This document shows positions 42,947-59,512 of a stretch of DNA of 64,000 nt, piece after piece. Position numbers and translations under genes: made by a program. Source of the DNA: a bacterium (GTDB taxonomy: Bacteria; Patescibacteriota; Minisyncoccia; UBA6257; 2-01-FULL-56-20); NCBI GenBank assembly GCA_021780195.1, contig JAJXZE010000002.1:20220-84219 (forward strand), given 5' to 3'. Numbering within the stretch: the stretch's first letter is position 1; every line of letters starts with the position of its first letter. Below the pieces are notes generated by a model. It made no database searches, was not told the DNA's origin, and was given only the letters and a program-made list of their open reading frames with translations.

Positions 42947-43018
42947 GGTGCCTCTAGCTTAATGGTAAAGCTCCGCTCTGTGGCAGCGGCAATACGGGTC
43001 CGATTCCCGTGAGGCACC
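42947..43018 (+). tRNA. tRNA-His (anticodon GUG) with encoded G-1
   Basis: G-1 + GTGCCTC acceptor arm; anticodon stem CCGCT/AGCGG with loop CTGTGGC; T arm ACGGG-TCCGATT-CCCGT; C73 opposite G-1. CCA is not fully encoded. Confidence 0.85.
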
Positions 43019-43022
43019 CAGC

Positions 43023-43094
43023 GCAAACAAAGACATACTCCCTTACGGACATGGGCTCCCTTTAATGTCCGCAAGGGAGTATGTCTTTGTTTGC
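43023..43094. repeat. Long hairpin element, family member B
   Basis: Perfect 22-bp stem GCAAACAAAGACATACTCCCTT / AAGGGAGTATGTCTTTGTTTGC, inner 7-bp CGGACAT/ATGTCCG and apical loop GGGCTCCCTTTA. That loop is the reverse complement of the apex of the 5127-5204 hairpin. Confidence 0.75.
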
Positions 43095-43116
43095 CGCGCT
43101 GGGCTGTTTTGTGAGA

Positions 43117-43136
43117 GAAGCGGACGAGGGGAGGGG
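43117..43136. repeat. 20-bp direct repeat, left copy (flanks the Fic cassette)
   Basis: GAAGCGGACGAGGGGAGGGG, identical to 44313-44332. Confidence 0.8.
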
Positions 43137-43246
43137 TCGGGAGGGGCGGGCCGCCCCTCCCGTGTGGGAGGGCTACGCTGCTCCGGGCGGCGCGGCAGTG
43201 CGGGACCGAGGGTCCCGCAGGCGCAGGGCGGCTGAGCGCCCGAGCA

Positions 43247-43271
43247 GTCCGACTCCCCGTGAGGCACCCAG
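43247..43271 (+). repeat. Duplicate of the 3' ~24 nt of tRNA-His (att-like)
   Basis: GTCCGACTCCCCGTGAGGCACCCAG compared with the tRNA 3' end GTCCGATTCCCGTGAGGCACCCAG (42998-43021). There is one substitution and one extra C. Confidence 0.75.
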
Positions 43272-43277
43272 GGAGGG

Positions 43278-44207
43278 TTATTTTCCCTTCCGCTCCACGA
43301 TTCGGTATCCTTCCAAGATCGCATCGCACATAAAATTCTCGAGTAGCGTAAGGTCGTCTTTCGTTTGCGCTTTGTTGAGATAAGCGATATACCGCCGCCG
43401 ATCCTCTTGCAGGATGACGAGCGGCGGAAGATCTTCCTTGAGCGCCATCGCATGCCCAAGCAGACGGCCAATGCGGCCGTTGCCGTCGGCGAACGGATGG
43501 ATCATTTCGAACCGAGCATGGATGGCGGCAATGTGCCGGACGACATCCTTCGTTTTTTCGCGCATATCCTCAACGAGCGTCTTCATCAGATCGGGAACCT
43601 TCGCATAATTTGCCGTGGGGACATCCGAGCCCGCTATTCGCACACCATGGTTGCGATACCCTCCGGCGTAGGGGTGGACCGCATTCAGAAGGATGCCGTG
43701 TAGCTTCACGATCAACGATTCGTTGATCGGCTCCCCTTCTCCGATATAACCGAAAAGATATTCCAAGGTAGCCTGATGGTTCTTCACCTCGAGCTGTTCG
43801 ATGATGCTCTTGTTCGGCAACGCCGCGTTCTGGAACATGATCGCCGCCGTTTCTCCTTCGGACAGCGTGCTCCCTTCGATGCGGTTCGAGTGGTACGTAA
43901 GCGACAGATAGAATTGATCGCGGATATCGGGATTATCTACAATGCGTCGCAGTACGTGCGGGCGCTGTTTTTGTTTTACGCGGATGATCCCCTTTTTCGC
44001 CGCGAGTTCGCTTTCCGGCACCTGCTTCTCGCCCGAATACTCTTTATATAATTCGTCGATTTTTTGAAGTGCCCCGAGGCGCGGCGACGCCCTTTCGTTT
44101 ATCCACCGGTTGAGCGCCGCAAAGGTAACTCCAAGGCGGTTGGCCAGCTGGGTCTGCGTCAATCCCGACAGCTTCAAGATAAGTTGTAATTTCTGTCTTG
44201 AGGTCAT
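43278..44207 (-). CDS. fic: HTH-Fic family protein (AMPylase-type toxin/regulator)
   Basis: Fic motif HPFADGNGRIGRL and an N-terminal XRE-type HTH (LSGLTQTQLANRLGVTFAALNRWI). Confidence 0.9.
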   Translation of the reverse strand: MTSRQKLQLILKLSGLTQTQLANRLGVTFAALNRWINERASPRLGALQKIDELYKEYSGEKQVPESELAAKKGIIRVKQKQRPHVLRRIVDNPDIRDQFYLSLTYHSNRIEGSTLSEGETAAIMFQNAALPNKSIIEQLEVKNHQATLEYLFGYIGEGEPINESLIVKLHGILLNAVHPYAGGYRNHGVRIAGSDVPTANYAKVPDLMKTLVEDMREKTKDVVRHIAAIHARFEMIHPFADGNGRIGRLLGHAMALKEDLPPLVILQEDRRRYIAYLNKAQTKDDLTLLENFMCDAILEGYRIVERKGK

Positions 44208-44221
44208 AGCCCCATGGTAAT

Positions 44222-44242
44222 AAACTATATATAGTTTGTCAA
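44222..44242 (-). promoter_or_regulatory. fic promoter/operator
   Basis: The 16-bp perfect palindrome AAACTATATATAGTTT (44222-44237) abuts a minus-strand TTGACA (44237-44242) about 30 nt upstream of the fic ATG. Confidence 0.5.
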
Positions 44243-44312
44243 AATGCGGCCTTTATATATAGTTATATACCTCGTTTTATGAGGTATATCCTGACTTTCT
44301 TATTGTCTCGGG

Positions 44313-44332
44313 GAAGCGGACGAGGGGAGGGG
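44313..44332. repeat. 20-bp direct repeat, right copy
   Basis: GAAGCGGACGAGGGGAGGGG, identical to 43117-43136. Confidence 0.8.
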
Positions 44333-44371
44333 CGCAGAGCTTTTGAGCGCTCTTTGCACGACCGCTACTAG

Positions 44372-44944
44372 CTAGTACGTTGTCGGAGAGAAAACGGTGC
44401 TGGTCGAGGTGATGCAGGATTCGAAGAGCTGGGTCGACGATGCGCTGTCGGGGGCGGATAATATTCCCCTGAGCGTTGCCTGCTTCAGGGACTCCATGGT
44501 CGAAGTGCCGTCGGGCTTCACCCCGTATTTATCGCTTTCAGCGCTAATGAATGCGAGCGTGCTCGAAACCTCTTCACTTTTTACATTTGCCTGGAGCGTG
44601 GAGTCGAGTGGATTTCCCGATAGTTCATTGAGCGCATCGAGGACGGTTTGATTCCCCTGCGTTTCCTGCTGTTTTACGAATGTCTGGCGAGCGTCATTTG
44701 CGGAGGTTACTTCTACGGTTTCAACTCCATCCTGCGTACGGACGGCGGCGGCAATCTTTTGAATTACGGCGATATCGGTTCCGGACGAAAAGCTGACCGT
44801 GATGGGGCTCGCGAGGCCCGCGATCTTGTTATAGCACTGATGCCGAAGATCTGCGGGGCGATATTGATGAGCGATCAAAAAAACGCCAACGCCGGCAACG
44901 CAGATTACTGCGGCAATCGCCGCAAATATCAGAACCACTTTCAT
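44372..44944 (-). CDS. Membrane-anchored protein with FtsX-extracellular-domain-like fold (tentative)
   Basis: Start trimmed to ATG 44944 (MKVVLIFAAIAAVICVAGVGVFLIA). The body (..GVETVEVTSANDARQTFVKQQ...GNPLDSTLQANV) loosely resembles FtsX ECD sequences. Confidence 0.4.
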   Translation of the reverse strand: MKVVLIFAAIAAVICVAGVGVFLIAHQYRPADLRHQCYNKIAGLASPITVSFSSGTDIAVIQKIAAAVRTQDGVETVEVTSANDARQTFVKQQETQGNQTVLDALNELSGNPLDSTLQANVKSEEVSSTLAFISAESDKYGVKPDGTSTMESLKQATLRGILSAPDSASSTQLFESCITSTSTVFSPTTY

Positions 44945-45003
44945 GCTTCCAGTATAACAGAAGTGCGGCACGGAAAGCTAAAAATCCTGGTATACTTAAT
45001 CAA

Positions 45004-46446
45004 ATGTCGCTCATGGGGTTTGTCAGGATCATCTTCGCCGCGCTGTTCCTGATTTTCGCTGTTGTGCTCGGCGGATGGTGGTGGCGGATGGCGGTGGTTG
45101 ACACGCTGACCGTCGCACTCGTGACCACCGCACTCATGGCGGCCGCGCTTGATTTTCTGTTATGCGTCCTGTACCGCTTCGAGGTGAAGCGGCTTGAGGC
45201 GTGGGGCTATATTCTGGGCGTCCTGCTCATTGGCGCAGGAACGCTCATGATCGCCTTGATATGGTCGATGAACCTTGTCTCCTACGTCTATGCGGGCACG
45301 GTTGCGTATGCCGTACTGCTTTTCCTGCTTGCCATGGCACTCGTCATTCTTCCCGTCGCGTCAACGATAGATTATGTAATCTTTCTCACGCGGCGAAGGA
45401 AATCAGCCACGGCCATGAGGGCGAGCTGGGCAAGATTCGTGCTTTCCTTTGCCGCGCTCGTTGCCGTGGGCGTCTATGCCTATGCTATGGCGCAAAAACC
45501 GCAAGCGTTCATCGGAGTCATTGCCGGATCGGGCGGGGGCACCGGCCAGATTTGCACCATCCAGAATCTCGGCCCGGCGCCCGCGACGGACGTTGTATTG
45601 CTTCGCCTCGAGCTTGCCGCGCCATATGACGCCTCGTTCCAGATTGCGTCCCAATGGCTCGCAAGCCGCGGATTCTCCGTCGATCATCAAGTGTCGCGGG
45701 ACACGTCTTTTAGCGGAACCGTCGGGCAGGTAGAGCAGGCATTTGGTATTCAAGGGAGCGTCAATAAATATTGCATGAGTTGGGGAATGTGCGATGCCGG
45801 TACGAACCCCGATGCCCCCGTCAATGTTCCCATTCCTGTGGCGCTTGCCTCGGCCGTGGCAAAGATCTCCGGGCCGAGCTGCCCGCCGCCCATGATGCCC
45901 GCGAAGCCCGTCATTTACCTCTACCCGACGCATCAGGAATCCGTTTCCGTGACGCTTGATTACGCGGGGACAATCACCGACGTGTACCCCTCGTTCGATC
46001 AGGGGACGACGTGGAGCGTCGTCGCGTACCCAGGCGGCCGGATCATCGACGACCGCGACGGCCAGCCGTATTCATATCTCTTCTGGGAGGGGCAGGATCA
46101 TGCCCGGTACGACCTCTCGACGGGCTTCGTGGTGAAGGGGAGCGACACGGCGGCATTCCTGCAGAAGAAGCTGGCGGCCATGGGCCTTACCCCGAAGGAA
46201 TACAACGAATTCATCGTGTACTGGCTACCGAAGCTTGCGCACGATCCTTACAATCTGATCCATTTCGCGGGGAGCGAGTATACGGACACGGCGAAGCTCG
46301 TCGTCGATCCTGCGCCCGACAGCATCCTGCGCGTCTTCATGGTCTATAAGCCCCTCGCGGCGCCGGTCGCCGTCGAACCGCAGACCTTTCCTCCCTTCGT
46401 GCGGAAAGGGTTCACCGTCGTCGAGTGGGGCGGCACGGAGCGGTAG
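45004..46446 (+). CDS. Polytopic membrane protein with large C-terminal soluble domain, hypothetical
   Basis: About 6 N-terminal TM helices and a ~300-aa C-terminal domain of unknown family. Confidence 0.6.
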   Translation: MSLMGFVRIIFAALFLIFAVVLGGWWWRMAVVDTLTVALVTTALMAAALDFLLCVLYRFEVKRLEAWGYILGVLLIGAGTLMIALIWSMNLVSYVYAGTVAYAVLLFLLAMALVILPVASTIDYVIFLTRRRKSATAMRASWARFVLSFAALVAVGVYAYAMAQKPQAFIGVIAGSGGGTGQICTIQNLGPAPATDVVLLRLELAAPYDASFQIASQWLASRGFSVDHQVSRDTSFSGTVGQVEQAFGIQGSVNKYCMSWGMCDAGTNPDAPVNVPIPVALASAVAKISGPSCPPPMMPAKPVIYLYPTHQESVSVTLDYAGTITDVYPSFDQGTTWSVVAYPGGRIIDDRDGQPYSYLFWEGQDHARYDLSTGFVVKGSDTAAFLQKKLAAMGLTPKEYNEFIVYWLPKLAHDPYNLIHFAGSEYTDTAKLVVDPAPDSILRVFMVYKPLAAPVAVEPQTFPPFVRKGFTVVEWGGTER

Positions 46447-46526
46447 TACTCGCGTACGAGAGGGGGATGGGTTTGGGGTGCGGGATTTCCGGGGGAGCTG
46501 ATTTCCGCTGAGGTAGCGGGGAGAAA

Positions 46527-49349
46527 TTATGCTCCCGTTGACGCGACCCCGCCCTTATTTTTTTCTCCCGGCTTTTCGAAAACACAGATTGTACGGCCCG
46601 CATCATCAAAATAATGGGTAAGAATATACCCATTTCGCAGGGGCGACCAATCCGGAGAGTCGCCGGAGGGGTATTCTCTTGTCATGATGCCCTCTTCGGG
46701 GTTTTGATTTTTTTTGATGGCAGAAACAATTTCCCGACCACTGATTTTTTTGGAAGCGAGTCCCTTGTCGGCGTCGGGAGACAGCTCGATCTTTAAGCTC
46801 GGTACCCCCTTGTAATCATATGCTTCCGTGGCGACAAAGCCGCTCTCGATGTATCTCTTGGTGACGGGCGCCATCGGATTGCAATCGGCGAAAATAGGAA
46901 CCCCGAGGGCACGCTCCTCCCGGAGGGCTTGGTCAAGCATCGTTTCCCCCACTTTGCCTCGTCCATACGCCGGACTCGTGTTGAAAGACCCGAAATAGAT
47001 AGAATCAAGCCTGCCGTTTTTGAATGTGTGGTCGAAGCGGCAGAACGCCGCAACGGCCCCTTTGTGCTTGAAGAGATAGAATCTGGTGTCGGGATTATCG
47101 AGAGATGCATCAAATGACTGGATGAGGGCGTCGATGAATTTTTCGGGATATTCCGTCCGATTGCCATAATTCTTTTGATATATACGGCGCATCTCTTCGA
47201 GAAGCGGAGGATCTTTCTTGAGGTCGGCTCCCGAGGAGACGTTGAATTCGGCGAGTCCGAGGTCGCGAAGGTCGGCGGGAAGCTTGCCGGATCCCTGTTT
47301 TAATGCCTTTATGGTGCTGGTGAAAAGCACGACTTCCGCTTTTATGTCGTCCAGGCGCTCGAAAAGATCACGAGTGTCAGTGCCGAGCTCGGTGGCGTCG
47401 ACAAAGTGCTCTATCAGCTCGTTGCCGCGCCTCAGGAGGTTGCGGGCCACCTGGTTCACGAGTTCTTCGTCCGTCTTTTGTCCCGATGAAAAATTGTCCC
47501 GTAAATATTCCCGAACCTTCTCAATCACCGCCGCTATCTCTGCATATTTTTCAAAAAGCTTCCGGGCGTCATCGCGATCAAGGATATTCGCCAGGCGGAT
47601 GATCGCGTCGCCGTAGTCAGTCCCGCCTTCGGAGCATGCAAGGAAGGAGGTGGCAAAGTTCTTTATATAGATCCGTTCGGGATGGAGGTCGGGCTCCGGT
47701 CCCCCCCGGTGCCACTCAAGGTGGATGGAGGCGTCGTCCGCGATCTTGTCGAGCCCGGCCTTGAGGCGCTGGATTTCATCCACGTTCCGTCCGTCGATAT
47801 AATGGAGGAATTGCACCTGCGCAGAGAGGGGAAAATCGGCCATATCTATCAACAGATCGTCCTCCAGTACTTTGCGCATACTGAGTCGCATCAGGTACTG
47901 GTAGTGATATTCCGCTTCTTCCGACACCGTGCCCGCGGGGAAGAGGCGTCGCAGATATTCCTCCTTGCTGAGTATGGGCGGTGGCACGCTCTTGCCCGCC
48001 TCGAACGTTACGTATTCGGCATTCCTGCGAAGGATCTCTCCCGCCACGAAGGGATGTATGCCATCGACGTCAATACGCTCGAGGTCGAAAAAAAACTTTC
48101 GGCCGGCATCATGCAACTTGCGGTCGAAGGACCACAAGTCCTCCAGTTGCCGCAATGAACCATACCTCGGCGAACCTATTGCAAGCGCGTCATAAATCGC
48201 CTCATCCGCAGGATCATTCCGCGCTATATAGTGCCCCTCGTCAATTCCGGGTTCCTCGTCGCCGTGCGAGATGTCGAAGATGCTTTCAAGGCGCCCGGCG
48301 CGATATTGGCCGAGATAGCCGGGGGCGATAGGAAGGACCGCGTTTGCGATGGGGTTGCCCTCGGTAATGCCGTAGCGCATTCTCAGATTATACGACTCGA
48401 ACATGCGCCTGTAGGTATATATGGTCTTATTCGAGGCACCCCCCGCGATACCGGAGACGACGCCTTCTTCCATGTCGTATCGGTCGTATGAATGGACGGC
48501 TTTGTAGACGTCATCAAGATGCGCCCCGAGAAGATAATTTTCGACCCTTTCCGTGGCATCCTTCGCGAGCTCTTCCACAAATTTCAGCGCAAACCGATTG
48601 TAAGAATTGCCATATTCGTCCAGCGGCTCCTCGTCCGGGGCGATATTCTGCAGGGCCGTAATATCAGCGCTGAAAAAATCTATGATTTTGTGCGCGAGTA
48701 AGTTGCCTTGCGGGTCGTTCGCGCGAATGAGGGCGTCAAGTTGGTTTTCCACCCGCAGGGGCAGGGCGTCTTCGGCCGCCTCCATCTTTTTTGCAAAGTC
48801 CTCCCGCGGGAACAGGGAGTTTCCCAGTCCGTCAATTTCCCCCAGTAATGCGATGATCGGGAACGAGGCAGGCATTCCCTTCGAAGAGATACCCCGCGCA
48901 ACAGCGTCTTCGACGATGTCGATGCGTCGTTGCCGTTCTTCGGGAGTCCCGCCCCGAAGTACAAAATCCACAATTTGAGATCCTTTCTCCGGCCGGGGAG
49001 AAGTATTTCCGGCTTCACAAAGGGCATCGATGGCCGATCCTAGATTCTGCTCCGAAATGGTTTCCGCCGTCGCCCCGCGCGCAATGAGCACATCGGCAAT
49101 CTCATCTGCGTCGCCGACCGGAAGCGGATCGTTGGAGAGAAAGCCGTCCGGCAAGGGGCGCGCGGGTGGAAACTCTTTATTGATCGAAGCATATTCCTGT
49201 CTCTGACGGAAAAGAGGAAGGCCTGGGACAGCCCGGAGCGAATTCACCAATTCCTTCCTGCGGCGCGCTTGCTCATGCGATGACCGTTTTTTGTTCGCGC
49301 CGTATTCCGCGTCAGCGCTCAATTCCACTGTTGATCCTTCTTTGCGCAT
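46527..49349 (-). CDS. 940-aa protein: unknown ~750-aa N-terminal region fused to a C-terminal GNAT-like acetyltransferase
   Basis: The C-terminus has the GNAT acetyl-CoA motif context (SIYFGSFNTSPAYGRGKVGETMLDQAL...YIESGF). The rest shows no recognisable motif. G+C is visibly lower than in the flanking core genes. Confidence 0.6.
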   Translation of the reverse strand: MRKEGSTVELSADAEYGANKKRSSHEQARRRKELVNSLRAVPGLPLFRQRQEYASINKEFPPARPLPDGFLSNDPLPVGDADEIADVLIARGATAETISEQNLGSAIDALCEAGNTSPRPEKGSQIVDFVLRGGTPEERQRRIDIVEDAVARGISSKGMPASFPIIALLGEIDGLGNSLFPREDFAKKMEAAEDALPLRVENQLDALIRANDPQGNLLAHKIIDFFSADITALQNIAPDEEPLDEYGNSYNRFALKFVEELAKDATERVENYLLGAHLDDVYKAVHSYDRYDMEEGVVSGIAGGASNKTIYTYRRMFESYNLRMRYGITEGNPIANAVLPIAPGYLGQYRAGRLESIFDISHGDEEPGIDEGHYIARNDPADEAIYDALAIGSPRYGSLRQLEDLWSFDRKLHDAGRKFFFDLERIDVDGIHPFVAGEILRRNAEYVTFEAGKSVPPPILSKEEYLRRLFPAGTVSEEAEYHYQYLMRLSMRKVLEDDLLIDMADFPLSAQVQFLHYIDGRNVDEIQRLKAGLDKIADDASIHLEWHRGGPEPDLHPERIYIKNFATSFLACSEGGTDYGDAIIRLANILDRDDARKLFEKYAEIAAVIEKVREYLRDNFSSGQKTDEELVNQVARNLLRRGNELIEHFVDATELGTDTRDLFERLDDIKAEVVLFTSTIKALKQGSGKLPADLRDLGLAEFNVSSGADLKKDPPLLEEMRRIYQKNYGNRTEYPEKFIDALIQSFDASLDNPDTRFYLFKHKGAVAAFCRFDHTFKNGRLDSIYFGSFNTSPAYGRGKVGETMLDQALREERALGVPIFADCNPMAPVTKRYIESGFVATEAYDYKGVPSLKIELSPDADKGLASKKISGREIVSAIKKNQNPEEGIMTREYPSGDSPDWSPLRNGYILTHYFDDAGRTICVFEKPGEKNKGGVASTGA

Positions 49350-49353
49350 AGTA

Positions 49354-50136
49354 TTACGCGGATCGTGGGGTTGGCTCCTTTATCTGCTCCGCGAGTCCCC
49401 AGAGATACTCGAAGAGATATTTATGCATGGCGTAAATGTGCGGGTCAGCAAGAATGACGCCGATCATTCTTTCCGGCCGCAGAGTGACGTAAGCGATTTT
49501 TCCGTCATAAATATTCATGATGCTTTCGAATGGAGGGGCGTCCACTCGTATGAGGCGGCTCTCGGTCACGGCGAGGTGGTAATCCTTCAGGTACTCCCGC
49601 GTCGCCGGGGTATCAAGAAGGATGCCGCGCCGTTTGACTCCCAGTTTTTCCCTCTTGGCCACATAAGCGTTATTGAGGGGGCCGATATTTTTCATCACCG
49701 CCTCGATATCCGCATATGAACAGATCTCAGTCCGCGATATAAGCGTATCGTCCAGGACCTTTTTAATGCCCTCAAGGCCTTCGTAGAATAGAACACCGGG
49801 TTTTCCGGATGAAAGGTTGAAATCGGAAACCAGCGAGTTCAGAACTCCCTCGAGTGCGACGTGGGCATCGGCGGCCGCACGCGATTTCTGGTCAGCCAGA
49901 TCTCTTAGTTTCAATGGGTGGGCCGGTTCAAATTGAGCCACCGATCCCGCCTTGTCCCGTCGGACGGCCAGGCCCCCTGCTTCAAGTTCCCCGAGGATCT
50001 TGTAGGTAAGGCCGCGCTTTAGTCCTGCGTAGCTACTGATTTTTCCCGCTGGAAGCAAGCCATGCTTTACTAGGATCTCGTAGAGCTTGGCCTGGTCTGG
50101 AGAAAGTCCCGCCCTAGAAAGGGTCTGTTCGTACAT
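49354..50136 (-). CDS. TrmB-family transcriptional regulator
   Basis: N-terminal winged HTH MYEQTLSRAGLSPDQAKLYEILVKHGLLPAGKISSYAGLKRGLTYKILGELEAGGL plus a C-terminal TrmB-like sensor-length domain. Divergent from the operon promoter. Confidence 0.7.
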   Translation of the reverse strand: MYEQTLSRAGLSPDQAKLYEILVKHGLLPAGKISSYAGLKRGLTYKILGELEAGGLAVRRDKAGSVAQFEPAHPLKLRDLADQKSRAAADAHVALEGVLNSLVSDFNLSSGKPGVLFYEGLEGIKKVLDDTLISRTEICSYADIEAVMKNIGPLNNAYVAKREKLGVKRRGILLDTPATREYLKDYHLAVTESRLIRVDAPPFESIMNIYDGKIAYVTLRPERMIGVILADPHIYAMHKYLFEYLWGLAEQIKEPTPRSA

Positions 50137-50220
50137 GGCTTCATTGCAATAATAACATAAAATTAACGCTTTGGAAAGTGTCACGGGGCGTAAAAAGGGC
50201 TTAATCTTTTTTATTTATCG

Positions 50221-50234
50221 TCATAAAATTATGA
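50221..50234. promoter_or_regulatory. Inverted repeat TCATAA-AA-TTATGA in the divergent control region
   Basis: Lies between the TrmB-type gene and the 50317 promoter. It is a possible operator. Confidence 0.3.
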
Positions 50235-50316
50235 CAATTAATGCTATAAAACTCGGCCATTTGTATCATGAAAATACTTATTTCTGCAGAAATTTAGAAA
50301 GATGCGCCACAAGAAC

Positions 50317-52338: not shown

Positions 52339-52357
52339 GATGAGAAAGGAGGACGTC

Positions 52358-52573
52358 ATGGCAAGAGAAGTCATAACGATCGGCGGAGACGGAGGCGTCG
52401 GCTCTGAAATGTTCGGGTTCAAAGGCAAGAGCTGCCTCAAAGCGGCGGCTGAGATTGCCGAAGAGCTCAAGCGGCTCGGAGTGGTTGCCGACATCGGCGG
52501 AATCAGCATGAAAGAGGATGCCGAGGTCGTGACCGAGACGCAGCAAGCGGCAATGAAGGTCGAAAGGGGATGA
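52358..52573 (+). CDS. Operon gene D: DUF2997-like small protein (71 aa)
   Basis: AAGGAGG SD. Sequence MAREVITIGGDGGVGSEMFGFKGKSCLKAAAEIAEELKRLG matches the remembered DUF2997 pattern (I..DG.V...V.G.KG.sC.....l...lG). Confidence 0.6.
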   Translation: MAREVITIGGDGGVGSEMFGFKGKSCLKAAAEIAEELKRLGVVADIGGISMKEDAEVVTETQQAAMKVERG

Positions 52574-53205
52574 AAGTTATGGTTATGCCCCGCGTAAACC
52601 TTCACGACTTCGTCCCCCGGTCTCGTGCAAACGGGCCGGGGGAGCGAGCGGTGGTTTGGGTGCAGGGTTGCCCTCGGCGTTGTCCGGGGTGTTTCAATCC
52701 CGAAACCTTACCATTCGTTACCAAGAATTGGGTAACCGTTGATGATCTTGAGAGCCGAATCTTGGCTCAAAACAACATTGACGGCGTCACCTTTTCTGGT
52801 GGCGAACCGTTCGCACATGCACAGGCACTTGCCGAGTTGGCGAAAAAGCTGCGCAAGTATGGATTGACGGTGGTGTGTTACACCGGCTACACGCTCAAGC
52901 AACTTAAGGCCGGAAATCGCGAGGACTGGAATGCTCTTCTTTCAGAAGTAGACCTTCTGATTGACGGGCCATTCATCCAAGAGCAGCGGTGCCATGAACC
53001 ATATCGCGGCTCGGCAAACCAAATTCTTCACCTTCTTACCGATCGCATCCGATTGGAGGAAGTTCATGGGCAAAGCCAGACAGCAGAGTTCACACTCGGC
53101 GCTGGCGGAGACATCCAGCAAACTGGATTCCCTGAACTCCCCGACATGGATGCGGTCATGGGAGAAATCTCAGGGATCCTCAAACAGACAGGAGGATCGA
53201 AATGA
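52570..53205 (+). CDS. Operon gene E: NrdG/PflA-type radical-SAM activating enzyme (orphan)
   Basis: The CX3CX2C cluster is present in VWVQGCPRRCPGCFNPE, with the SAM-binding GVTFSGGEPF. About 210 aa, as in NrdG. ATGA overlaps with both neighbours. Confidence 0.8.
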   Translation: MKVMVMPRVNLHDFVPRSRANGPGERAVVWVQGCPRRCPGCFNPETLPFVTKNWVTVDDLESRILAQNNIDGVTFSGGEPFAHAQALAELAKKLRKYGLTVVCYTGYTLKQLKAGNREDWNALLSEVDLLIDGPFIQEQRCHEPYRGSANQILHLLTDRIRLEEVHGQSQTAEFTLGAGGDIQQTGFPELPDMDAVMGEISGILKQTGGSK

Positions 53206-55010
53206 AAGATACGAAGAATTGTGCCGTAACGGCACACAGTTGGTTTGAGTCTTTTGCTCGTGCCTACGCGGCCGAGCTCGGGTACGTGTTTCTTATCTCC
53301 GGCAACATCGCAGATTTATTCCCCTTGGGGAGCGAGTTCGTGACCTTGCGCCAGTTCTGGGCAAGGCAGTTGGATGGCAGAGACATTGTGGTGTTCTGGG
53401 ATAAGTCGGCGGGGTTCGCCTTTGCTGACGAAATCCTCGGCACCAAACCGGCCGAAGGGCAACTCCCGATGAGGGAGAAGTTCAAGGCCGCAGTCGGACT
53501 GAATCAGCAGCAAGGTAATGGCGGCAGCAATGCCTCTAACTTGCTGGCTGGCTTGGCTGGATTGGGCGGCGGCAACAACGGCGCGCTTCCCACTGATCCT
53601 GAGCAAGCTTTCCAGCTTCTGGAAAAATTGCTCTCACAGGGCAAGCCAGAAGATCGGAAGGCGGCGGTAGTCGTGGAGTACATCGAAAGTGTTATCCCCG
53701 AAAACGACTACGGGTCAGTTCCGGCAGTAACGCTCCAACGGTGGGCGTCTCTGGACAGCCCGCTCAAGGGTACCGGCAACCCGGTTATCCTGATCGAGCG
53801 GAATCCAGAACGGGCCTCTAGTGTAGTGAAGCATGACGATTCGTCGGTAGTGCGGATCCACATTCCTCGTCCGAACAAAGAGGAGTTCGGAACATTCATC
53901 CGTCACAGCCTGAAGGTCAACGGCGTTAAGCTCGCCGAAGGCCTGACGGTGGACGTGGCGGCCAACCTGTCAGCCGGGCTACGTTGCAAGGACTTTGACG
54001 ACTTTGTCATGAAGTCGCTCGAGTCCGGCGACCCAATCAACGACACCTTTATTTGGCAGAAAAAGGTGGAGTTGATTGAGAAGCAGTCCGGCGGGGTCCT
54101 GCAGGTGGTAAGACCCAAGCATGGGTTCGAATCCATCGGCGGGCTGGAGCACGTCAAGAGCGCCCTACGGGTGCAGATTGACAAGCTTCGCAGTGGTTCC
54201 AGAACCACTGATAAGGGTTGGATTCTGATGGGGCCTCCGGGAACGGGGAAAACCATCATCGCCGAGGCGCTGGCGAAAGAGTCGGGTGTCAATTTCGTGA
54301 TGCTCGGCAACGTCCTCTCCAAGTATGTGGGTGACTCGGAGAGAAACATGAATCTCGCTATGGAAATTGCCCGAGCCATGGCGCCCACAATCATCTTCGT
54401 TGACGAAGCCGCTGAGGCAATCGGAAACGGAGAGGGCTACAACGGGGATAGCGGCGTCAGCAATCGTGTAAGGGGGAAACTCCAGAACGTGATGGGTGAC
54501 GACTCTGCCCGGGGCCAGCTGTTCTTTATGCTGGCAACGAACTATCCCAATCGTCTGGCACCGGCGATTCTGCGTGAGGGAAGGATGGACAAGCGGGTGC
54601 CACTCTTGGTTCCTGACAGCACCGGGAGAAATGAGATTCTCAAAGCGCTTTGCCTAAAGTATGGCATTGCGTCCGAGGGAATCGACTTTTCACCTGCCCT
54701 TGCCAGTACGGAAGGGTGGACAGGTGCTGAGCTCGAGGCGCTTTTACTCCGAGCGAAGCAATTTGCAGAGGAGGAGGAAGTGCCGGTCGAGACCCGTCAT
54801 TTCGATGAAGCGGTAAAGGATTACATCCCGAGCCGCGACCAGCAGGCGTTCGACCTGATGACCGCGTTGGCCATCAGGTACACGAACTCCAGACGGCTTC
54901 TGCCCGAGGCCTATCGGTCTGCGAATGGAGAAATTCAGAAGCGGATCGATGAGCTCGAGCCTCAGGTGGCCGAGCGCGAAGCAAGGCGCCGGGGCGGGCT
55001 GAAGCTCTAG
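53202..55010 (+). CDS. Operon gene F: Ycf46/CDC48-type AAA+ ATPase (602 aa) ending RRGGLKL
   Basis: Walker A GPPGTGKT, Walker B IIFVDEA, DSGVSNRV (Ycf46-like), and a large non-ATPase N-domain. The C-terminal tail is ...IQKRIDELEPQVAEREARRRGGLKL. Confidence 0.85.
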   Translation: MKDTKNCAVTAHSWFESFARAYAAELGYVFLISGNIADLFPLGSEFVTLRQFWARQLDGRDIVVFWDKSAGFAFADEILGTKPAEGQLPMREKFKAAVGLNQQQGNGGSNASNLLAGLAGLGGGNNGALPTDPEQAFQLLEKLLSQGKPEDRKAAVVVEYIESVIPENDYGSVPAVTLQRWASLDSPLKGTGNPVILIERNPERASSVVKHDDSSVVRIHIPRPNKEEFGTFIRHSLKVNGVKLAEGLTVDVAANLSAGLRCKDFDDFVMKSLESGDPINDTFIWQKKVELIEKQSGGVLQVVRPKHGFESIGGLEHVKSALRVQIDKLRSGSRTTDKGWILMGPPGTGKTIIAEALAKESGVNFVMLGNVLSKYVGDSERNMNLAMEIARAMAPTIIFVDEAAEAIGNGEGYNGDSGVSNRVRGKLQNVMGDDSARGQLFFMLATNYPNRLAPAILREGRMDKRVPLLVPDSTGRNEILKALCLKYGIASEGIDFSPALASTEGWTGAELEALLLRAKQFAEEEEVPVETRHFDEAVKDYIPSRDQQAFDLMTALAIRYTNSRRLLPEAYRSANGEIQKRIDELEPQVAEREARRRGGLKL

Positions 55011-55060
55011 TCCGAAACACCAACACAGAAACGAAAAGAATGGAGGTGATTCCAATGTAG

Positions 55061-55758
55061 TTCTTATGGCGAGAGCCACGGAGAACCCGAATCTTTCCGC
55101 GGGATGGAGTGTGCGGGGAAGATCGGAGGCGGTCTTCGGTAGGGCTGCTTCTTAAAACATGACCCGGCGATGCATCAGGCCGAAGTCTGATGTAGGTTCC
55201 AGCGGCAGATGTTTGTCGGCTATCAGGGATATCCGGCAGACAGTTGGAACAAAGGGGTTTGTACATTTGCGGGTTCATTGGTGTGCGAGCTTCTCTCCCT
55301 GAAATGGAGAAACGAACCAAAAGCGAAGTTAACCTTCAACCGGCGGTTGGCAATCATCCGTCGAGCGTTAACCCCAAGTGGAATTAGCGGTGCTTAATAA
55401 AGGCCACAGGCCTAATGAGCCGCTAAATCCAGCAAGGTCGCAGAGTTCCCTTCGGGGGATAAATAAATTGCATAAGCCGAGAAATCGGAATGCGGATCGC
55501 GCTTGACTTAAAGCGCGAGAAGCGAGTGGCCAGTCAATCGGCCGTCCGATTTGTCCAGTTGCGAGCAACATTGCAGTTGGACTAGGCGAAGATTGAACGC
55601 GCTCATCCGCGAAACTTCAAATTCGGCCTAGGGTTCGATGAGGGGTTCTATAAAATTCTTGACTTTGGCCAAGTCTTGGCGGCACTTGCTTTGCCGTAAC
55701 CTCGGGCTAATCGCAAGTTAGCTCGAGGAAAGCAAGAAGGGTTTAGGGTTTACAGTCC
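55061..55758 (+). ncRNA. Candidate large structured RNA inside the operon
   Basis: About 800 nt without a credible ORF. Stable helices include 55385-55425 (nested), a C(UUCG)G hairpin at 55445-55460, a GAAA-tetraloop hairpin at 55477-55488, an 8-bp helix at 55497-55518 and a three-tier helix at 55685-55736. Confidence 0.5.
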
Positions 55759-55824
55759 GGGCGAGTTGACGCACTCAACTCGCCCCTTCTTCCGAACTCA
55801 TCATCATGGTGATGATGAGTTCGG
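55759..55824 (+). promoter_or_regulatory. Two tandem perfect hairpins preceding gene G
   Basis: GGGCGAGTTGA-CGCAC-TCAACTCGCCC (55759-55785, followed by CTTCTTCC) and CCGAACTCATCATCA-TGG-TGATGATGAGTTCGG (55792-55824). They may act as an attenuator, terminator or processing site. Confidence 0.45.
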
Positions 55825-55868
55825 AGAGAGGGTTCATTGACAACCAAATACGAAAGGAGGAAAGCAGA

Positions 55869-56621
55869 ATGGACAAGGTCCAAATCTACCCGCAAGGGCT
55901 CGGAGAGTACGAGCGGACACTTGGTCTGCGCTGGTCGGTATCATATTACTTGATGCCAGAAGCGCATACGTGCCAAGTGGTCTGCGACGGTCGCGAGCGA
56001 AAGTGTGAGATTTGGATCAACGGTACCACGTACCGAAATCCAGAACTCATGTTCGCTGATGTGATTCATGAGCTCTGCCATTGTAGTTTGGCAGAACGAA
56101 TCGATCCGGCTTTCTCGACGGTTTTCTTTTCCAACAAATGGAATGAAATCAGTCGAGAAGATGAGGCTCGGTTCGGTCAGCTTGCTCGCATGCTCTACTA
56201 CGCGTGGAGTCATGTAGACATTTGGGTGAACGATCTTCGTTTCGCCCACTGGCCAGAGCTCACAAACGAGGATCACAATACTTTTGCACAAGGGATGGTA
56301 GCAATCGTCCAAGCGCAGGAGTGGCGTGTTCTGCAGTCACCCGAAACAGTTCTTGGTCTGGCTCAATACCAGGCTGAGAGGAATCGGCATCATGTCAATA
56401 CGCCTGATCTGTTTGCAGCTTTAGAGGCAAACGGAGTGGGCGTGGATGACCAAATCCGAAAATTGGCTATCTACTTTGAGTCTTTGCCTCGATTGAAGTT
56501 CAATCAGAGAAAGGACTTGAAGGCACTCGAGCGGTCAGTTCAGGACGCAGCGAAGATGCTGAACTTTCCTATCACCCCCCGGCTTGTCTGGGAGGAACGA
56601 TGGGTATGGAGTCTCGACTGA
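55869..56621 (+). CDS. Operon gene G: HExxH-motif protein, putative zinc metallopeptidase
   Basis: Start moved to ATG 55869, after AGGAGG; the ORF-track start 55806 lies inside the hairpin. A single HELCH motif in ELMFADVIHELCHCSLAE. No other family signature recognised. Confidence 0.55.
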   Translation: MDKVQIYPQGLGEYERTLGLRWSVSYYLMPEAHTCQVVCDGRERKCEIWINGTTYRNPELMFADVIHELCHCSLAERIDPAFSTVFFSNKWNEISREDEARFGQLARMLYYAWSHVDIWVNDLRFAHWPELTNEDHNTFAQGMVAIVQAQEWRVLQSPETVLGLAQYQAERNRHHVNTPDLFAALEANGVGVDDQIRKLAIYFESLPRLKFNQRKDLKALERSVQDAAKMLNFPITPRLVWEERWVWSLD

Positions 56622-56658
56622 GACCCAAAGCAAAAAGCAAAAGGAAAGGAGAAATAAA

Positions 56659-57000
56659 ATGAGAAACGGCAATTTCCTGTATCAGCTGAGTTTGCAGGAG
56701 GCTTTCATTGTTCACCGCGGCGTAAGCCAAGGCGGCAAGAAGCTGAATGCAGATCAGCGGAGGATTTTCTGGCAGAGAAATAGCCAGAAGGTCAGCGGTG
56801 TCGAGATTGGTGCCGGCAAGGTGCTGGTCTCACTGGTTGGGCTCAGAGTTCTTCGCGAGAAGAATCTCGTGATCGTTTCCAACCCCGGGAAACCGAGGAT
56901 ATGGACGATCAAGCGGATCATGGAATCCGCTGAGAGGAATCAAGTTATTCCAGAACTGACGCAGGGATCGTCTCAGCGTCGAGGTGGACTGAAGCTGTAG
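56659..57000 (+). CDS. Operon gene H: 113-aa protein ending RRGGLKL
   Basis: Start at ATG 56659, after AAGGAG. The tail ...TIKRIMESAERNQVIPELTQGSSQRRGGLKL shares KRI...RRGGLKL with the AAA+ ATPase. Confidence 0.65.
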   Translation: MRNGNFLYQLSLQEAFIVHRGVSQGGKKLNADQRRIFWQRNSQKVSGVEIGAGKVLVSLVGLRVLREKNLVIVSNPGKPRIWTIKRIMESAERNQVIPELTQGSSQRRGGLKL

Positions 57001-57055
57001 CAATTCCAAACCTGTTTGCCTCAGGCAAACGCAACTGAAATGAAAGGAGATCGAA

Positions 57056-58366
57056 ATGAAAGGGATCTATTACAGCAGACATTGCGGTTATGATAACCGC
57101 GATCAGAACAAGGACGACTGGCGTCAGCCGGTCGAAGGTGAATCCATCATTCTCAATCGATCTGCGTTCTCCAAGTTCTTCCCCGAGGTCGTAATCCAAG
57201 GGGAAATCAAGTGGAGATGCAAGGATCACAGCGATGAGCGGTGCGAGGGCTGCAACGGTTGCGACCAGAGTGTGAAAATCACTTTTGGCCGCGAAGGGGG
57301 GCAGTTCACCGTCAGTCGCACGGACGAGGGCAAGACCCACAACATCGACCAGTTCGGCTGGGGATGGAGTGGGAACGGGGCCAACGAGCACTGGTTCGAT
57401 GATGAGGCGATCTGCCTCAAGTTGGTCAGTGACTATCGATCAAACACAGGCCTTACGGCCGACTCCACAAGGATCGTCTCTTACAAGCGACACGTGGAGG
57501 TTGATTCTTTCCGCGGCGATTGCAAAGATGAAACACGAACATTGCCCAAGGGAGGTAAGATTTGGGCGGAGTTCGTCAATCATCCGGCGCAGTACCGCGC
57601 AAACTGGACGGGCTTCGGGATCGGGACATTGGATTCTGACGCTACGCCAATCATTGGCGACGCATTGGACAACCTGATCGAGACAATGCTTTCCGGCAAC
57701 ATCGGCAAGGAGACGGTGTGCAGACACAACAGTAACGTACGAGCGCACATCGTGACCGCCGATCCCAACAAGGTCTCCCTCTACCTCTGCAAATCCTGTC
57801 GGATGCGCGGAGTGCGGTGGGAAGAGTTCATGACCAGGAATCGCGCGGATACGTGTCCTTATTTCCGCCGCGCTTGCAAGAGCGTAGTGGAGAAATCGGA
57901 CTCGTTCCCCGAGTGGTTCAGCTGGAACGGCGACAATCTGCTTTCTTCTACCCTTCGGCTGAAAGACGGCGAGTACAATGCGTACGAAGTCGTCTATGTT
58001 CGAAGGAAGGAAGGATTCATTCGCCGGTCGGTGCTTCTTCTAAACGATCGCACTCGTGAAGTGTGGATGTTCCGCTACAACGGATTCATCCCGCGCACGA
58101 TGGCGGAGTTCAAAACCAAGTACGCCGAAGGTCGTCAGATTAGCGGCTACATGGGCACCGGTCCGACAGACCGCAGCTACAACAGCGAAAATCCCAATGA
58201 CAGATTCCTGTCAGAGGCGAAGATCGCGGAGGCGATTGCACAGGGTTTGAGCAACCCAGTGTGGAGAAACGGAACCTCCTTGCTCATCTCCATCGATTTG
58301 GGTCGCAACGATCTTCACGATTTCGCGATCCAGAAAGGGGAGATCAACGGCTACCAGATTGCGTAA
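57056..58366 (+). CDS. Operon gene I: 436-aa Cys-rich protein, unknown family
   Basis: AAGGAG SD. Cys clusters C55-x7-C-x2-C-x2-C (CKDHSDERCEGCNGC) and C-x2-C...C-x6-C (LCKSCRMRG...CPYFRRAC). The stop TAA is followed by a 65-codon in-frame open extension. Confidence 0.7.
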   Translation: MKGIYYSRHCGYDNRDQNKDDWRQPVEGESIILNRSAFSKFFPEVVIQGEIKWRCKDHSDERCEGCNGCDQSVKITFGREGGQFTVSRTDEGKTHNIDQFGWGWSGNGANEHWFDDEAICLKLVSDYRSNTGLTADSTRIVSYKRHVEVDSFRGDCKDETRTLPKGGKIWAEFVNHPAQYRANWTGFGIGTLDSDATPIIGDALDNLIETMLSGNIGKETVCRHNSNVRAHIVTADPNKVSLYLCKSCRMRGVRWEEFMTRNRADTCPYFRRACKSVVEKSDSFPEWFSWNGDNLLSSTLRLKDGEYNAYEVVYVRRKEGFIRRSVLLLNDRTREVWMFRYNGFIPRTMAEFKTKYAEGRQISGYMGTGPTDRSYNSENPNDRFLSEAKIAEAIAQGLSNPVWRNGTSLLISIDLGRNDLHDFAIQKGEINGYQIA

Positions 58367-58683
58367 CTTGACCACGAAGGCAAGGAGTGCGAGCTGGAGG
58401 CCAAGCCAACCCCCGCTCCGTTCTACACGGACGCGGGTGCCAGTTACCATCTGATTTACGGTGATTGGGCGCAGCATACGGTTCTCCGCCATCACGGCGA
58501 GGAGCTGTATCGCTCGGATCGGAGCAATTACAAGTGGTTCATGCTCCGAGTCGCAAAGCAGTAGAACCACGCCACCTCGTCCACCCGAGGTACGAATTCA
58601 AAGTGAGTCAGGGGAGTGGATAATGGCTCAAAGGGTTAAAAGGTTTACAATCAAGGGAGCAAGTAATGCACTTGCTTGCTCCC

Positions 58684-58736
58684 TCTCTTTCTCGGATGTG
58701 TATCCGAGCTGATGAGTCCGAAAGGACGAAAAGAGA
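58684..58736 (+). ncRNA. Type III hammerhead ribozyme
   Basis: Reading 5' to 3': TCTCTT (stem III 5' strand), U17, predicted cleavage between 58690 and 58691, then stem I CTCGGAT-GTGT-ATCCGAG. These are followed by the core CUGAUGA, stem II GUCC-GAAA-GGAC, the core GAA, and AAGAGA (stem III 3' strand). All conserved core nucleotides are present. Confidence 0.8.
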
Positions 58737-58996
58737 CAGAACATTAAAAAAGTGATATAATATAAATGGCCATCAAGAGGCCGATGCGTCAGCTTAACGG
58801 AATCGGATCGGGGCAGCAGTGTGAGATCGTCCCCGCTCTGTGTAAATAGAGAAGGGACAAAAATCTCTCTCCTCTAAAACACCGTTCCTCGGTCTGTATA
58901 ATTTCAGGTAAGCTGGCGCGCGGCCTCGTGATGGACATCAGCCCGTCACGAGGAGAGGATGAAAGGCGCAACTTTTCATCCTTTAATATACAAAGT

Positions 58997-59022
58997 CCGC
59001 CTTCTTAAGGCGGCCCTTTTTT
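58997..59022 (+). terminator. Rho-independent terminator
   Basis: CCGCCTT-CTT-AAGGCGG followed by CCCTTTTTT. Confidence 0.7.
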
Positions 59023-59189
59023 GTTTAGTTGAATGGATTTTCAAAATTAAATTTATGAGACAATAGCCGATTCTTGAAACAAAATGACGCATAACAATCT
59101 TGCCTTGCAAAGAATGAAATTCACAGAAAACACTCTCATTGCCCGCGCATTCTTGGTGGAGGCGATTATCACAGGGATCCTCTCGCCAT

Positions 59190-59512
59190 TTACCTCACGC
59201 TCCTGTACCCGCCCGGGACGCCCTCCGTTGAGAGGACGATCTGCCACAGCTGGTTTTTGCGCGCGCGGAAGGAACCGGCGCAGGCGAGAAGGTAGTACTT
59301 TCACATGCGGTAGAAGGTGTCGCCGTACTTTGGGGCGATCTCGGGCCAGCGGCGGTCGAAATTCCGGAACCATGCCATGAGCGTCCGGTCATAGTCGGCG
59401 CCGAAATTGTGCCAGTCCTCCATGACGAAGAGGCGCTCCGCCGCGCGCGTCCGATCTGCGCCACGGAAGGGATCATTCCGGGGCAAAATATGAAAATTAA
59501 AAGGCGCTTCCT
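59190..59512 (-). pseudogene. cfa: Cyclopropane-fatty-acyl-phospholipid synthase (Cfa-family) 3' remnant
   Basis: Three pieces are readable: IFCPGMIPSVAQIGRA (one frame), then RLFVMEDWHNFGADYDRTLMAWFRNF..WPEIAPKYGDTFYRM (second frame), then an in-frame TGA followed by KYYLLACAGSFRARKNQLWQIVL...*. Together they match the Cfa C-terminal ~105 aa. The N-terminal ~270 aa are absent. Confidence 0.75.

Follow-up and report, generated by a model that had tools for sequence, protein, structure and literature searches.

The window analysed here is a 64,000-nucleotide (nt) stretch of a Patescibacteria contig (JAJXZE010000002.1, positions 20,220 to 84,219), and this report concerns the 16.9 kb of it that lie between a tRNA-His gene and folA (Table 1). 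A sequence-only reading had described this segment as an old or degraded island that starts at tRNA-His and carries accessory genes. The gene content it named is all present: a helix-turn-helix (HTH)-Fic gene, membrane-protein genes, a GNAT fusion, a TrmB regulator, an operon, a hammerhead motif and a remnant of cfa. Our analysis makes it likely, however, that the segment is what currently fills a hotspot, and that it is a mosaic in which at least four pieces differ in their histories and the main body was imported. The first piece (43020-44332) would be the leftover of site-specific integration events around the HTH-Fic gene, the recombinase having since been lost. The second (44372-46446) comprises two membrane-protein genes, one of them of native composition. 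The third (46527 to ~59015) would be a 12.5-kb unit made of the GNAT fusion, a divergent TrmB gene and a self-contained operon of 8.7 kb, and the fourth (59172-59898) old resident DNA in decay, i.e. the cfa remnant and an orphan open reading frame (ORF).

Table 1. Features of the segment and its borders, in window coordinates (aa, amino acids; GC3, GC at third codon positions).
Feature	Position	Strand	Basis and remarks
tRNA-His (GTG)	42948-43019	+	ARAGORN; Rfam 60.4 bits; adjoins ftsH/VTT in relatives; left anchor of the variable interval
Near-perfect hairpin, 30-nt arms	43023-43094		97% complementary; directly 3' of tRNA-His
Direct repeat, exact, 20 nt (GAAGCGGACGAGGGGAGGGG)	43117-43136 and 44313-44332	+	two matches vs 0.01 expected
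Exact 16-nt copy of the tRNA-His 3' end (43006-43021)	43256-43271	+	repeat search; ~250 bp downstream of the tRNA
HTH_3 + Fic protein, 309 aa, GC3 0.66	43278-44207	-	Pfam Fic 1.3e-19, HTH_3 2.5e-9
Single-pass membrane protein, 199 aa, GC3 0.61	44372-44971	-	weak FtsX_ECD-like region, Pfam 7e-6; one N-terminal hydrophobic segment
Membrane protein, 480 aa, GC3 0.75	45004-46446	+	~5 N-terminal transmembrane segments
Orphan protein with C-terminal GNAT-like domain, 940 aa, GC3 0.63	46527-49349	-	left arm of the imported unit
TrmB-family regulator, 276 aa	49354-50184	-	Pfam TrmB 2e-7; divergent from the operon
Promoter-like site (TTGACA, 17 nt, TAATAT, TG extension)	50317-50345	+	brackets the unit together with the terminator
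Long conserved non-coding 5' leader with conserved hairpin	50350-51030	+	nhmmer matches in L088-L091, L098
174-aa protein	51031-51555	+	phrog_23674, 5e-21
96-aa ORF, variably present among operon copies	51584-51874	+	conserved repeat of ribosome-binding site and start codon; homologues in L088, L098
Conserved 149-aa protein	51889-52338	+	63-89% identity in 13/13 cassette loci that include the region
DUF2997-like protein, 77 aa	52340-52573	+	PF11211 8e-5, 22.9 bits vs cut-off 24.1
Radical S-adenosylmethionine (SAM) enzyme, 211 aa, NrdG-/glycyl-radical-enzyme-activase-like	52570-53205	+	Fer4_12 1.3e-35; phrog_626 1e-32
Tandem AAA+ ATPase, 602 aa, Cdc48/p97-like	53202-55010	+	Pfam AAA 3.5e-27; ends RRRGGLKL
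Structured non-coding RNA, ~640 nt, 21 helices	55160-55806	+	between the AAA gene and the downstream genes
271-aa protein with invariant HELCH motif	55806-56621	+	homologue alignment; present in only some operon copies
113-aa protein ending RRGGLKL (same tag as the ATPase)	56659-57000	+	tail kept in 10/11 cassettes examined
Orphan beta-rich protein gene, ~502 codons	57056-58564	+	in-frame TAA at 58364-58366
Highly conserved non-coding operon tail, 318 nt	58640-58957	+	92% identical to L090, L091
Hammerhead type III motif, putative	58684-58736	+	three stems and canonical core, inside the tail
Terminator-like hairpin and T run, operon end	58997-59013	+	brackets the unit together with the promoter-like site
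cfa (cyclopropane-fatty-acyl-phospholipid synthase), 3' remnant	59172-59450	-	C-terminal 93 residues, one in-frame stop
Orphan 115-aa ORF, two hydrophobic segments	59551-59898	-	ORF call
folA	59914-60504	+	Pfam DHFR_1 4e-65; starts the folA-thyA-CYTH-dcd block of native composition

The interval between tRNA-His and glyA in related genomes

The neighbouring FtsH gene (40357-42186, minus strand) finds its best matches, at no more than 86% identity, in Minisyncoccia/Paceibacteria-type metagenome-assembled genomes of ~0.8-0.9 Mb. An exact look-up of the FtsH protein gave no entry and no conspecific genome was found, so that our synteny comparisons span species-to-genus distance; the contigs of relatives or of homologous loci compared with the window are labelled L002, L088 and so on. 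In the alignments, similarity to the relatives stops at the 3' end of tRNA-His, which agrees with the start proposed for the segment. From there to glyA the distance is 19 bp in L033, 148 bp in L011, 536 bp in L006 and 683 bp in L020, four species-level relatives with empty-site-like arrangements; a further six species have 3.8-9.5 kb there, and the 20.5 kb of the window is the largest interval among the genomes compared. The closest relatives with folA in reach (L002-L005 and L039) show the order ftsH, VTT and tRNA-His, then 4.1-7.8 kb of unrelated genes and only then folA, with thyA, the CYTH-domain gene and dcd collinear behind it wherever the fetched sequence extends that far (L003, L004, L009 and L039). 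More distant relatives miss the folA-thyA-CYTH-dcd block at this locus, and tRNA-His directly abuts glyA there. The sequence-only reading had asked whether tRNA-His is directly followed by folA-thyA in related genomes; the arrangements found are others, either intervening genes or glyA itself. Core genes do resume in the window with folA, after which come thyA, the CYTH-domain gene, dcd, mazF and glyA, but the folA block is conserved among the nearer relatives only.

The relatives' intervals carry genes for a PfkB kinase, an AdoHcy hydrolase, a PAP2 protein and cfa, as well as orphan genes, and no integrase domain was found in them (ten largest ORFs tested). None of the genes of the window's segment was found within the tRNA-His-proximal 10 kb of related species, so that their description as accessory holds; a partial homologue of the 480-aa protein, 70% identical, does lie near ftsH in L045, on the other side of that gene. 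Because its length varies widely and the relatives carry different genes in it, the stretch from tRNA-His to glyA is a hypervariable hotspot of long standing, present lineage-wide in this Patescibacteria family.

Could the segment instead be an artefact, an assembly or binning chimera in which foreign contigs were joined at the tRNA? An independent assembly contig (L104, from the reads of SRR13178628) is 100% identical to the window across 42993-53326, joining the 3' end of tRNA-His, the Fic gene, the membrane-protein genes, the GNAT fusion, TrmB and the operon, and a chimera on the left side is therefore ruled out. That contig ends inside the tRNA at 42993, which leaves the junction to ftsH without independent confirmation and speaks for an artefact at that point. 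On the right side, the cfa remnant is orthologous to the cfa found at the same locus in relatives and the syntenic folA block comes next. We regard a chimera as highly improbable.

The dnaN and dnaA genes lie at 8850-11455 of the window and the cumulative GC skew turns at ~12-13 kb, so the replication origin is probably within the window. With dnaA and dnaN at 8.8-11.5 kb, the segment is ~31-48 kb from the presumed origin, and the operon genes are co-directional with replication. The mazF gene, encoding a MazF/PemK-type toxin (63014-63418, plus strand), lies between dcd and glyA and belongs to the same hotspot interval. Two observations concern the tRNA genes of the region. A tRNA-Ile with anticodon UAU (39680-39754, plus strand), located between tRNA-Gly and a cob(I)alamin adenosyltransferase-like gene, is conserved across this lineage: ARAGORN scans of 13 relatives showed it in 11, and it is also present in L084. 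The tRNA-His genes of L003 (9229-9300) and L004 (9228-9299) diverge in the D arm and in the anticodon and T stems while the acceptor ends are kept, which could reflect a tRNA gene replacement.

Composition, repeats and the edges of the segment

The GC content is 0.592 to the left of the segment (1-42947), 0.544 within it (43020-59900) and 0.606 to its right (59901-64000), and the window's lowest-GC stretch of 16.9 kb begins at ~43.5 kb. The mean GC3 of called ORFs is 0.625 inside the segment (n=15) against 0.725 outside (n=43; Mann-Whitney p=3.1e-4), with no difference between these two sets in GC1 or GC2. Tetranucleotide usage, computed in 3-kb windows and correlated with the remainder of the window, gave 0.886 +/- 0.042 outside the segment (minimum 0.80), 0.78-0.86 at 43-49 kb and 0.45-0.67 at 50-58 kb. 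The deviation from the flanks that had been proposed is therefore borne out by all three measures. A visible loss of GC3 had been placed at ~46.5 kb, and this is correct for the main block, where all genes from 46527 to 59898 have a GC3 of 0.51-0.70. The drop is uneven: the HTH-Fic gene and the 199-aa gene are already low, and the 480-aa gene in mid-segment is native-like (Table 1). The strongly foreign tetranucleotide signature is confined to the operon, and the shift arises mainly from the imported 12.5-kb unit.

Composition alone might also be read as native, vertically inherited DNA whose GC3 is lowered by weak expression or relaxed selection. The correlations at 43-49 kb are indeed close to the native minimum, and other small low-GC3 ORFs are found elsewhere in the window. 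The segment genes are nevertheless absent from this locus in the relatives, the tetranucleotide correlation falls as low as 0.45-0.52, and the operon has constant GC and GC3 in hosts that range from 0.35 to 0.59 GC (see below). For 50-59 kb this reading is largely refuted, and for the segment as a whole there is very little chance that it is right. The low-GC3 ORFs outside the segment (GC3 0.50-0.63; 21010-23241 and 815-1255 on the minus strand, 38073-38897 and 32067-32522 on the plus strand), which include a 743-aa orphan without a Pfam match, may represent additional small islets.

Repeats are concentrated next to the tRNA. The copy of the tRNA-His 3' end extends to ~25 nt, from 43249, with one mismatch and one indel, and it looks like the scar of an attachment (att) site; no copy of this kind was seen in 23 relatives. 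The two copies of the 20-nt direct repeat flank both the tRNA-end copy and the HTH-Fic gene. Such marks are expected of site-specific recombination at a tRNA gene, yet they delimit only 0.25-1.2 kb. The hairpin that directly follows the tRNA gave only spurious matches to microRNA families in Rfam. Against the PADLOC models, the HTH-Fic protein matches the single-gene candidate defence systems PDC-S04 (7e-42) and SoFic (2e-31).

At the other edge, the cfa remnant was identified by six-frame translation and tblastx; L039 has a cfa region in this interval too, with which the remnant shares 76% identity, and cfa is also found in L012 and L040. Since its truncated end faces folA and not the operon, the remnant is decaying resident DNA rather than cargo. 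A homologue search for the adjacent 115-aa ORF, over the loci fetched by then, found none.

These edges bear directly on the idea of a single old island (42948-59190) that integrated at tRNA-His by a tyrosine recombinase and then lost its integrase and its distal att site. The segment does start exactly at the tRNA, a copy of the tRNA 3' end lies downstream, no integrase is left, and there are signs of decay, namely the cfa remnant, the in-frame TAA in the last operon gene and the 16-nt tRNA copy. However, this copy, the sole tRNA-derived repeat, lies only 250 bp away from the tRNA, and a search with 40 nt of the tRNA-His 3' end on both strands gave no further copy in the window, including near 59 kb, so that nothing of the kind bounds the 16 kb. 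One gene within the segment is native in composition, tetranucleotide usage is strongly foreign at 50-58 kb only, and the cfa remnant is old resident DNA common to relatives at the locus. The 46.5-59.0 kb unit moreover recurs elsewhere, adjacent to a tRNA gene in only 1 of 13 loci. A single degraded island is unlikely in the light of these data. No integrase or transposase Pfam domain was detected in any ORF tested of 43-60 kb, as the sequence-only reading had stated, and no relaxase, coupling-protein or type IV secretion genes were found by Pfam in the segment. The remaining intergenic stretches of the segment are conserved, RNA-like sequence.

The 12.5-kb unit and its operon

The unit consists of the GNAT fusion and TrmB genes (46527-50184), followed by the operon, which is bounded by its promoter (50317) and its terminator (58997) and spans 8.7 kb (~50.3-59.0 kb). 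Its AAA ATPase has ~40 close homologues, 70-96% identical, on Patescibacteria-type contigs; on many of these the identity is 78-96%, whereas FtsH does not exceed 86% with any representative genome. Around the homologues the same order recurs. A large protein with a weak GNAT match, a divergent TrmB gene and a long gene-free leader come first. They are followed by genes for proteins of 156-174 aa, sometimes ~100 aa, and 148-151 aa, a DUF2997 protein, the radical-SAM enzyme and the AAA ATPase; after a gene-free gap of 0.66-1.5 kb come proteins of 243-271 aa (sometimes), 102-117 aa and 480-530 aa. This order, with TrmB and the GNAT-type large protein, was found in L081, L086/L099, L088/L089, L092 and L098. 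Homologues of the 940-aa protein adjoin TrmB and the operon at other loci, and a TrmB homologue occupies the same position in L081, L086, L088, L092 and L098. The GNAT assignment of the large protein is weak throughout, with Acetyltransf_1 scores of 17.8 bits for the 940-aa protein, 23.2 bits for P0165 and 20.5 bits for the homologue in L081, and a sequence search of the PDB with the 940-aa protein gave no match. At the DNA level the window is homologous to L088-L091 over 50767-58957, and more weakly back to ~50380. The chromosomal flanks differ from locus to locus (FtsZ and NrdD, HisRS and FtsA, ribosomal proteins, ValRS). Judged from these loci, the operon family circulates horizontally among Patescibacteria, at unrelated sites.

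The cassette has a GC content of 0.50-0.54 in every host, with sharp borders, against flanks of 0.35-0.49 elsewhere and 0.59 in the window; its GC therefore appears low in the 0.59-GC genome of the window and high where the host is at 0.35-0.40. The AAA gene keeps a GC3 of 0.61-0.78 whether the host genes are at 0.33-0.41 or, as in the window, at 0.81-0.83, and it is only partly ameliorated in one host of ~0.21-0.35 GC. Because the unit keeps its own GC3 in every host, recent import is favoured over the old residence that had been suggested, and the unit was probably imported recently, intact apart from one stop codon. The left arm points the same way in the window: the TrmB and large-protein genes have a GC3 of 0.59-0.63, far from the host's 0.81, and for this reason the whole of 46.5-59.0 kb looks imported here, from a donor whose GC would be close to the 0.52-0.55 that typifies the operon family. 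The unit could have entered within an integrative element that has since been lost, or by DNA uptake and recombination; this mode of entry and the function of the operon are inferred, while the anatomy, synteny, composition and RNA covariation were observed.

Several points weigh against this picture of a recently imported unit. The relatives available reach at most 86% identity in FtsH, so that the timing of the import and the empty-site state in this species are seen only indirectly. The 12.5-kb unit is not marked out by a recombinase, by terminal inverted repeats or by target duplications. Besides recent transfer, constraints of RNA structure or protein composition could partly account for the operon's constant GC. 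The TrmB and large-protein genes of AT-rich hosts show a host-like GC3 (0.30-0.37), and the left arm and the operon may therefore not always travel together. Finally, the function of the operon has no characterised homologue behind it, as the matches in PADLOC, NCBIfam and PHROG are domain-level only.

The GNAT fusion and TrmB have their closest homologues (58% and 71% identical) in L105-L107, where these adjoin a different, GC-rich operon that encodes a 649-aa DEAD/Helicase_C protein and two further proteins (508 and 314 aa). Since the pair sits beside a different operon there, it may be a conserved regulator platform for exchangeable cargo.

The operon opens with a promoter-like site and a long leader whose conserved hairpin shows compensatory changes in the alignment. 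The gene-free stretch upstream measures 2.7 kb in L091 (2356-5062) and 1.85 kb in L090. A second non-coding region, the ~640-nt RNA, lies downstream of the AAA gene and has homologous stretches in L088, L090, L091, L092 and L098. RNAalifold predicts 135 pairs in it, with 94.8% of cells paired, and 50 pairs have changed on both sides, against 23.2 +/- 3.3 in shuffled alignments (none of 500 reached 50) and 7-10 in slid controls. The tail is the third, being 92% identical to L090 and L091 where the DNA of the AAA gene is 78-82% identical, and the homology to both contigs ends at 58957. Neither the leader, the ~640-nt RNA nor the tail matched an Rfam family at the gathering threshold or at E<=1.

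Within the tail, the putative hammerhead has the cores CUGAUGA and GAA, and its stems are UCUCUU/AAGAGA (III), CUCGGAU-GUGU-AUCCGAG (I) and GUCC-GAAA-GGAC (II); cleavage is predicted after U58690. It has the catalytic core and three-stem junction of a hammerhead, H17 being U or C, and its minimum-free-energy fold is a three-way junction (-18.9 kcal/mol, z -2.56). Against Rfam Hammerhead_3 (RF00008) it scores 24.1 bits (E=0.3), below the gathering score of 48.5. The motif is also found in L090 (~9287-9340) and L091 (~11835-11888), with C at position 17. The strings CUAAUGAG and CUGAUGAG in the ~640-nt RNA were considered as a second hammerhead and dropped, most copies having A at the essential G5. 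In a literature search no link of hammerhead ribozymes to the Patescibacteria phylum was found, the co-mentions concerning RNA polymerase domains.

Among the proteins, the radical-SAM enzyme has the motif CPRRCPGC (CxxxCxxC) in translation and aligns over its full length with the NrdG model TIGR02491 (2-151 of 154), at 107.5 bits and below the equivalog cut-off of 126.1. The structural model of the ATPase (predicted local distance difference test, pLDDT, 86.9) has Cdc48/p97 as its top Foldseek matches (E 1e-23, ~600 aligned columns, template-modelling score ~0.55). Its match to TIGR01243 is limited to residues 303-523 and reaches 128 bits vs a cut-off of 802.65, for which reason the first AAA domain appears degenerate and the second, by its sequence, active. 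The L084 homologue of the 77-aa protein matches DUF2997 as well, and in a literature search DUF2997 and DUF1257 appeared only as a cyanobacterial gene cluster with ferredoxin. The 149-aa protein has no Pfam match above noise. The 271-aa protein, which matches nothing in Pfam or the PDB, is a possible Zn-peptidase to judge by its HELCH motif. In the ~502-codon gene the TAA at 58364-58366 replaces a Gln present in all homologues, and the 65 codons downstream are in frame and conserved; it is either a recent nonsense mutation, a sequencing error or a site of readthrough. The model of this protein (pLDDT 80.6) has no structural relative in the PDB or BFVD. The protein was also considered as TnpB or another RNA-guided transposase, an idea dropped for want of any Pfam match even at E<=1 and of any structural match. 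A minus-strand ORF of 293 aa (51724-52605) was dropped as a gene, the conserved ORFs there being on the plus strand.

Two of the operon proteins end in a common tag, encoded at 54987-55007 for the ATPase and 56977-56997 for the 113-aa protein. Across homologues the ATPase tail reads RRRG[GNK]L.L; that of the 113-aa protein reads RRGG[LMQ][KQ]L and is conserved although the protein is only 34-87% identical between cassettes. The RRGG-L-K-L tag implies that the two proteins have a partner or a modifying enzyme in common. It could serve as a substrate motif of the radical-SAM enzyme, or as a tail by which both dock onto one partner. Processing of the ubiquitin-like 'GG' type was considered and dropped, because the second Gly varies in the ATPase tails (G, N, K) and no E1, E2 or JAB genes are present. 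At low confidence, we picture TrmB as controlling one long transcript, which might be organised by its leader, the ~640-nt RNA and a 3' hammerhead that cuts off the tail, while the proteins may form a machine around the Cdc48-like unfoldase and the NrdG-like radical-SAM enzyme.

Conflict-type genes accompany the operon at other loci: HEPN with NTP_transf_2 and DUF4258 with DUF2283 in L088, AbiEii in L086 and a Fic homologue in L098; a VirD4-like gene lies upstream of the unit in L086 only. As the operon is often found among toxin-antitoxin, Abi and Fic genes and has phage homologues, its most likely role, which we put forward at low confidence, would be in genetic conflict, as a defence system or a selfish element. 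A bolder proposal is that the 8.7-kb operon is an undescribed RNA-protein system spreading horizontally among Patescibacteria, a new kind of conflict or selfish module, because it has kept its own composition in hosts of ~0.25-0.35 to 0.59 GC with no recognisable recombinase. We hold this to be possible but doubtful; the spread might depend on DNA uptake and recombination.

The phage homologues raise the further question of whether the operon is the remnant of a phage or phage satellite, left after decay of a prophage at tRNA-His. The 174-aa protein matches phrog_23674 and is 34-38% identical to jumbo-phage proteins (e.g. of GAP32 and CBB), and the radical-SAM enzyme has its match in phrog_626, a family of phage NrdG proteins. 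A 103-kb phage-like contig with ParB, HNH and BppU_N encodes a distant homologue of the AAA protein, and an att-like repeat is present at the tRNA. Yet no capsid, tail, terminase, lysis or integrase domains were detected in the window or in any cassette locus by Pfam, nor in the window with PHROGs. Scans of the IMG/VR viral contigs with the AAA and 502-aa proteins gave no relative, the N-terminal half of the AAA protein had no match in GenBank phages (tblastn), and the operon is always found among ordinary chromosomal genes. We consider a phage origin of this kind improbable and continue to favour an imported unit of a circulating operon family.

Comparison with known systems

As an island, the segment is ordinary, a variable hotspot beside a tRNA gene. 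Genomic islands linked to tRNA genes and integration hotspots between core genes are a general concept, familiar from pathogenicity islands and from chromosomal hotspots of gene gain and loss. Like those islands, the segment starts at a tRNA 3' end, has an atypical composition, is absent from the site in relatives, carries accessory or conflict-type cargo and has a short copy of the tRNA 3' end nearby. It differs in having no integrase and no tRNA-derived repeats that bound the whole, in being composed of modules of different age and in its host, an ultra-small Patescibacteria genome; the relatives' interval also holds genes of one-carbon and nucleotide metabolism and not mobile-element genes. 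Even Patescibacteria genomes of 0.8-0.9 Mb hence keep a dedicated hotspot of gain and loss, with an occupancy of 19 bp to 20.5 kb. A concrete imported unit, traceable in other genomes, explains the compositional shift, for which the decay of an unspecified old island is not needed. An operon family with a fixed GC across very different hosts is also a clean natural marker of horizontal transfer in uncultivated Patescibacteria.

The resemblance to defence islands lies in the PDC-S04 and SoFic matches of the HTH-Fic protein and in the toxin-antitoxin and Abi genes that accompany the operon elsewhere. The operon proteins themselves match no PADLOC system beyond the domain level (IetA and pVip, through generic AAA and radical-SAM similarity).

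The larger value of the locus is in its cargo, which includes a large RNA with covariation support, a hammerhead motif and a protein tag shared beside a radical-SAM enzyme. OLE, GOLLD, ROOL and HEARO are large bacterial non-coding RNAs, and the ~640-nt RNA is like them in its several hundred nucleotides, many helices, strong covariation and mobile or phage-related contexts. It is unlike them in matching no Rfam family and in its place inside an operon after an AAA ATPase gene, and it is so far found only on Patescibacteria-type contigs. The putative hammerhead shares with type III hammerheads (RF00008) the CUGAUGA and GAA cores, an open stem III and an NUH triplet (UUU here, UUC in L090 and L091), and the motif is kept in three operon copies. 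Its stems I and II are minimal with short loops, its score is below gathering, and its position at the 3' end of a bacterial operon sets it apart.

The substrates of glycyl-radical-enzyme activases (NrdG, PflA) carry the motif RVxG[FWY]. Unfoldases of the Cdc48/Mpa type dock onto a partner by their C-terminal tails, and Mpa and Bpa both end in GQYL. The radical-SAM enzyme of the operon resembles NrdG in its full-length alignment, although it stays below the equivalog cut-off. The ATPase is modelled with the D1-D2 fold of Cdc48 but fails membership of the Cdc48/p97 sequence family (TIGR01243), which has an N domain and two active ATPase domains. The operon encodes no recognisable glycyl-radical-enzyme barrel or proteasome-like partner, and the tag departs from RVxG[FWY] in having no aromatic residue after Gly and in lying only 4 residues from the C terminus. 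The analogies with NrdG substrates and with unfoldase tails are leads rather than tests; by analogy, the R-R-G-G-L-K-L shared by two operon proteins, with R at -3 and an invariant G, would be comparable to the RVxG[FWY] motif and to the GQYL tails.

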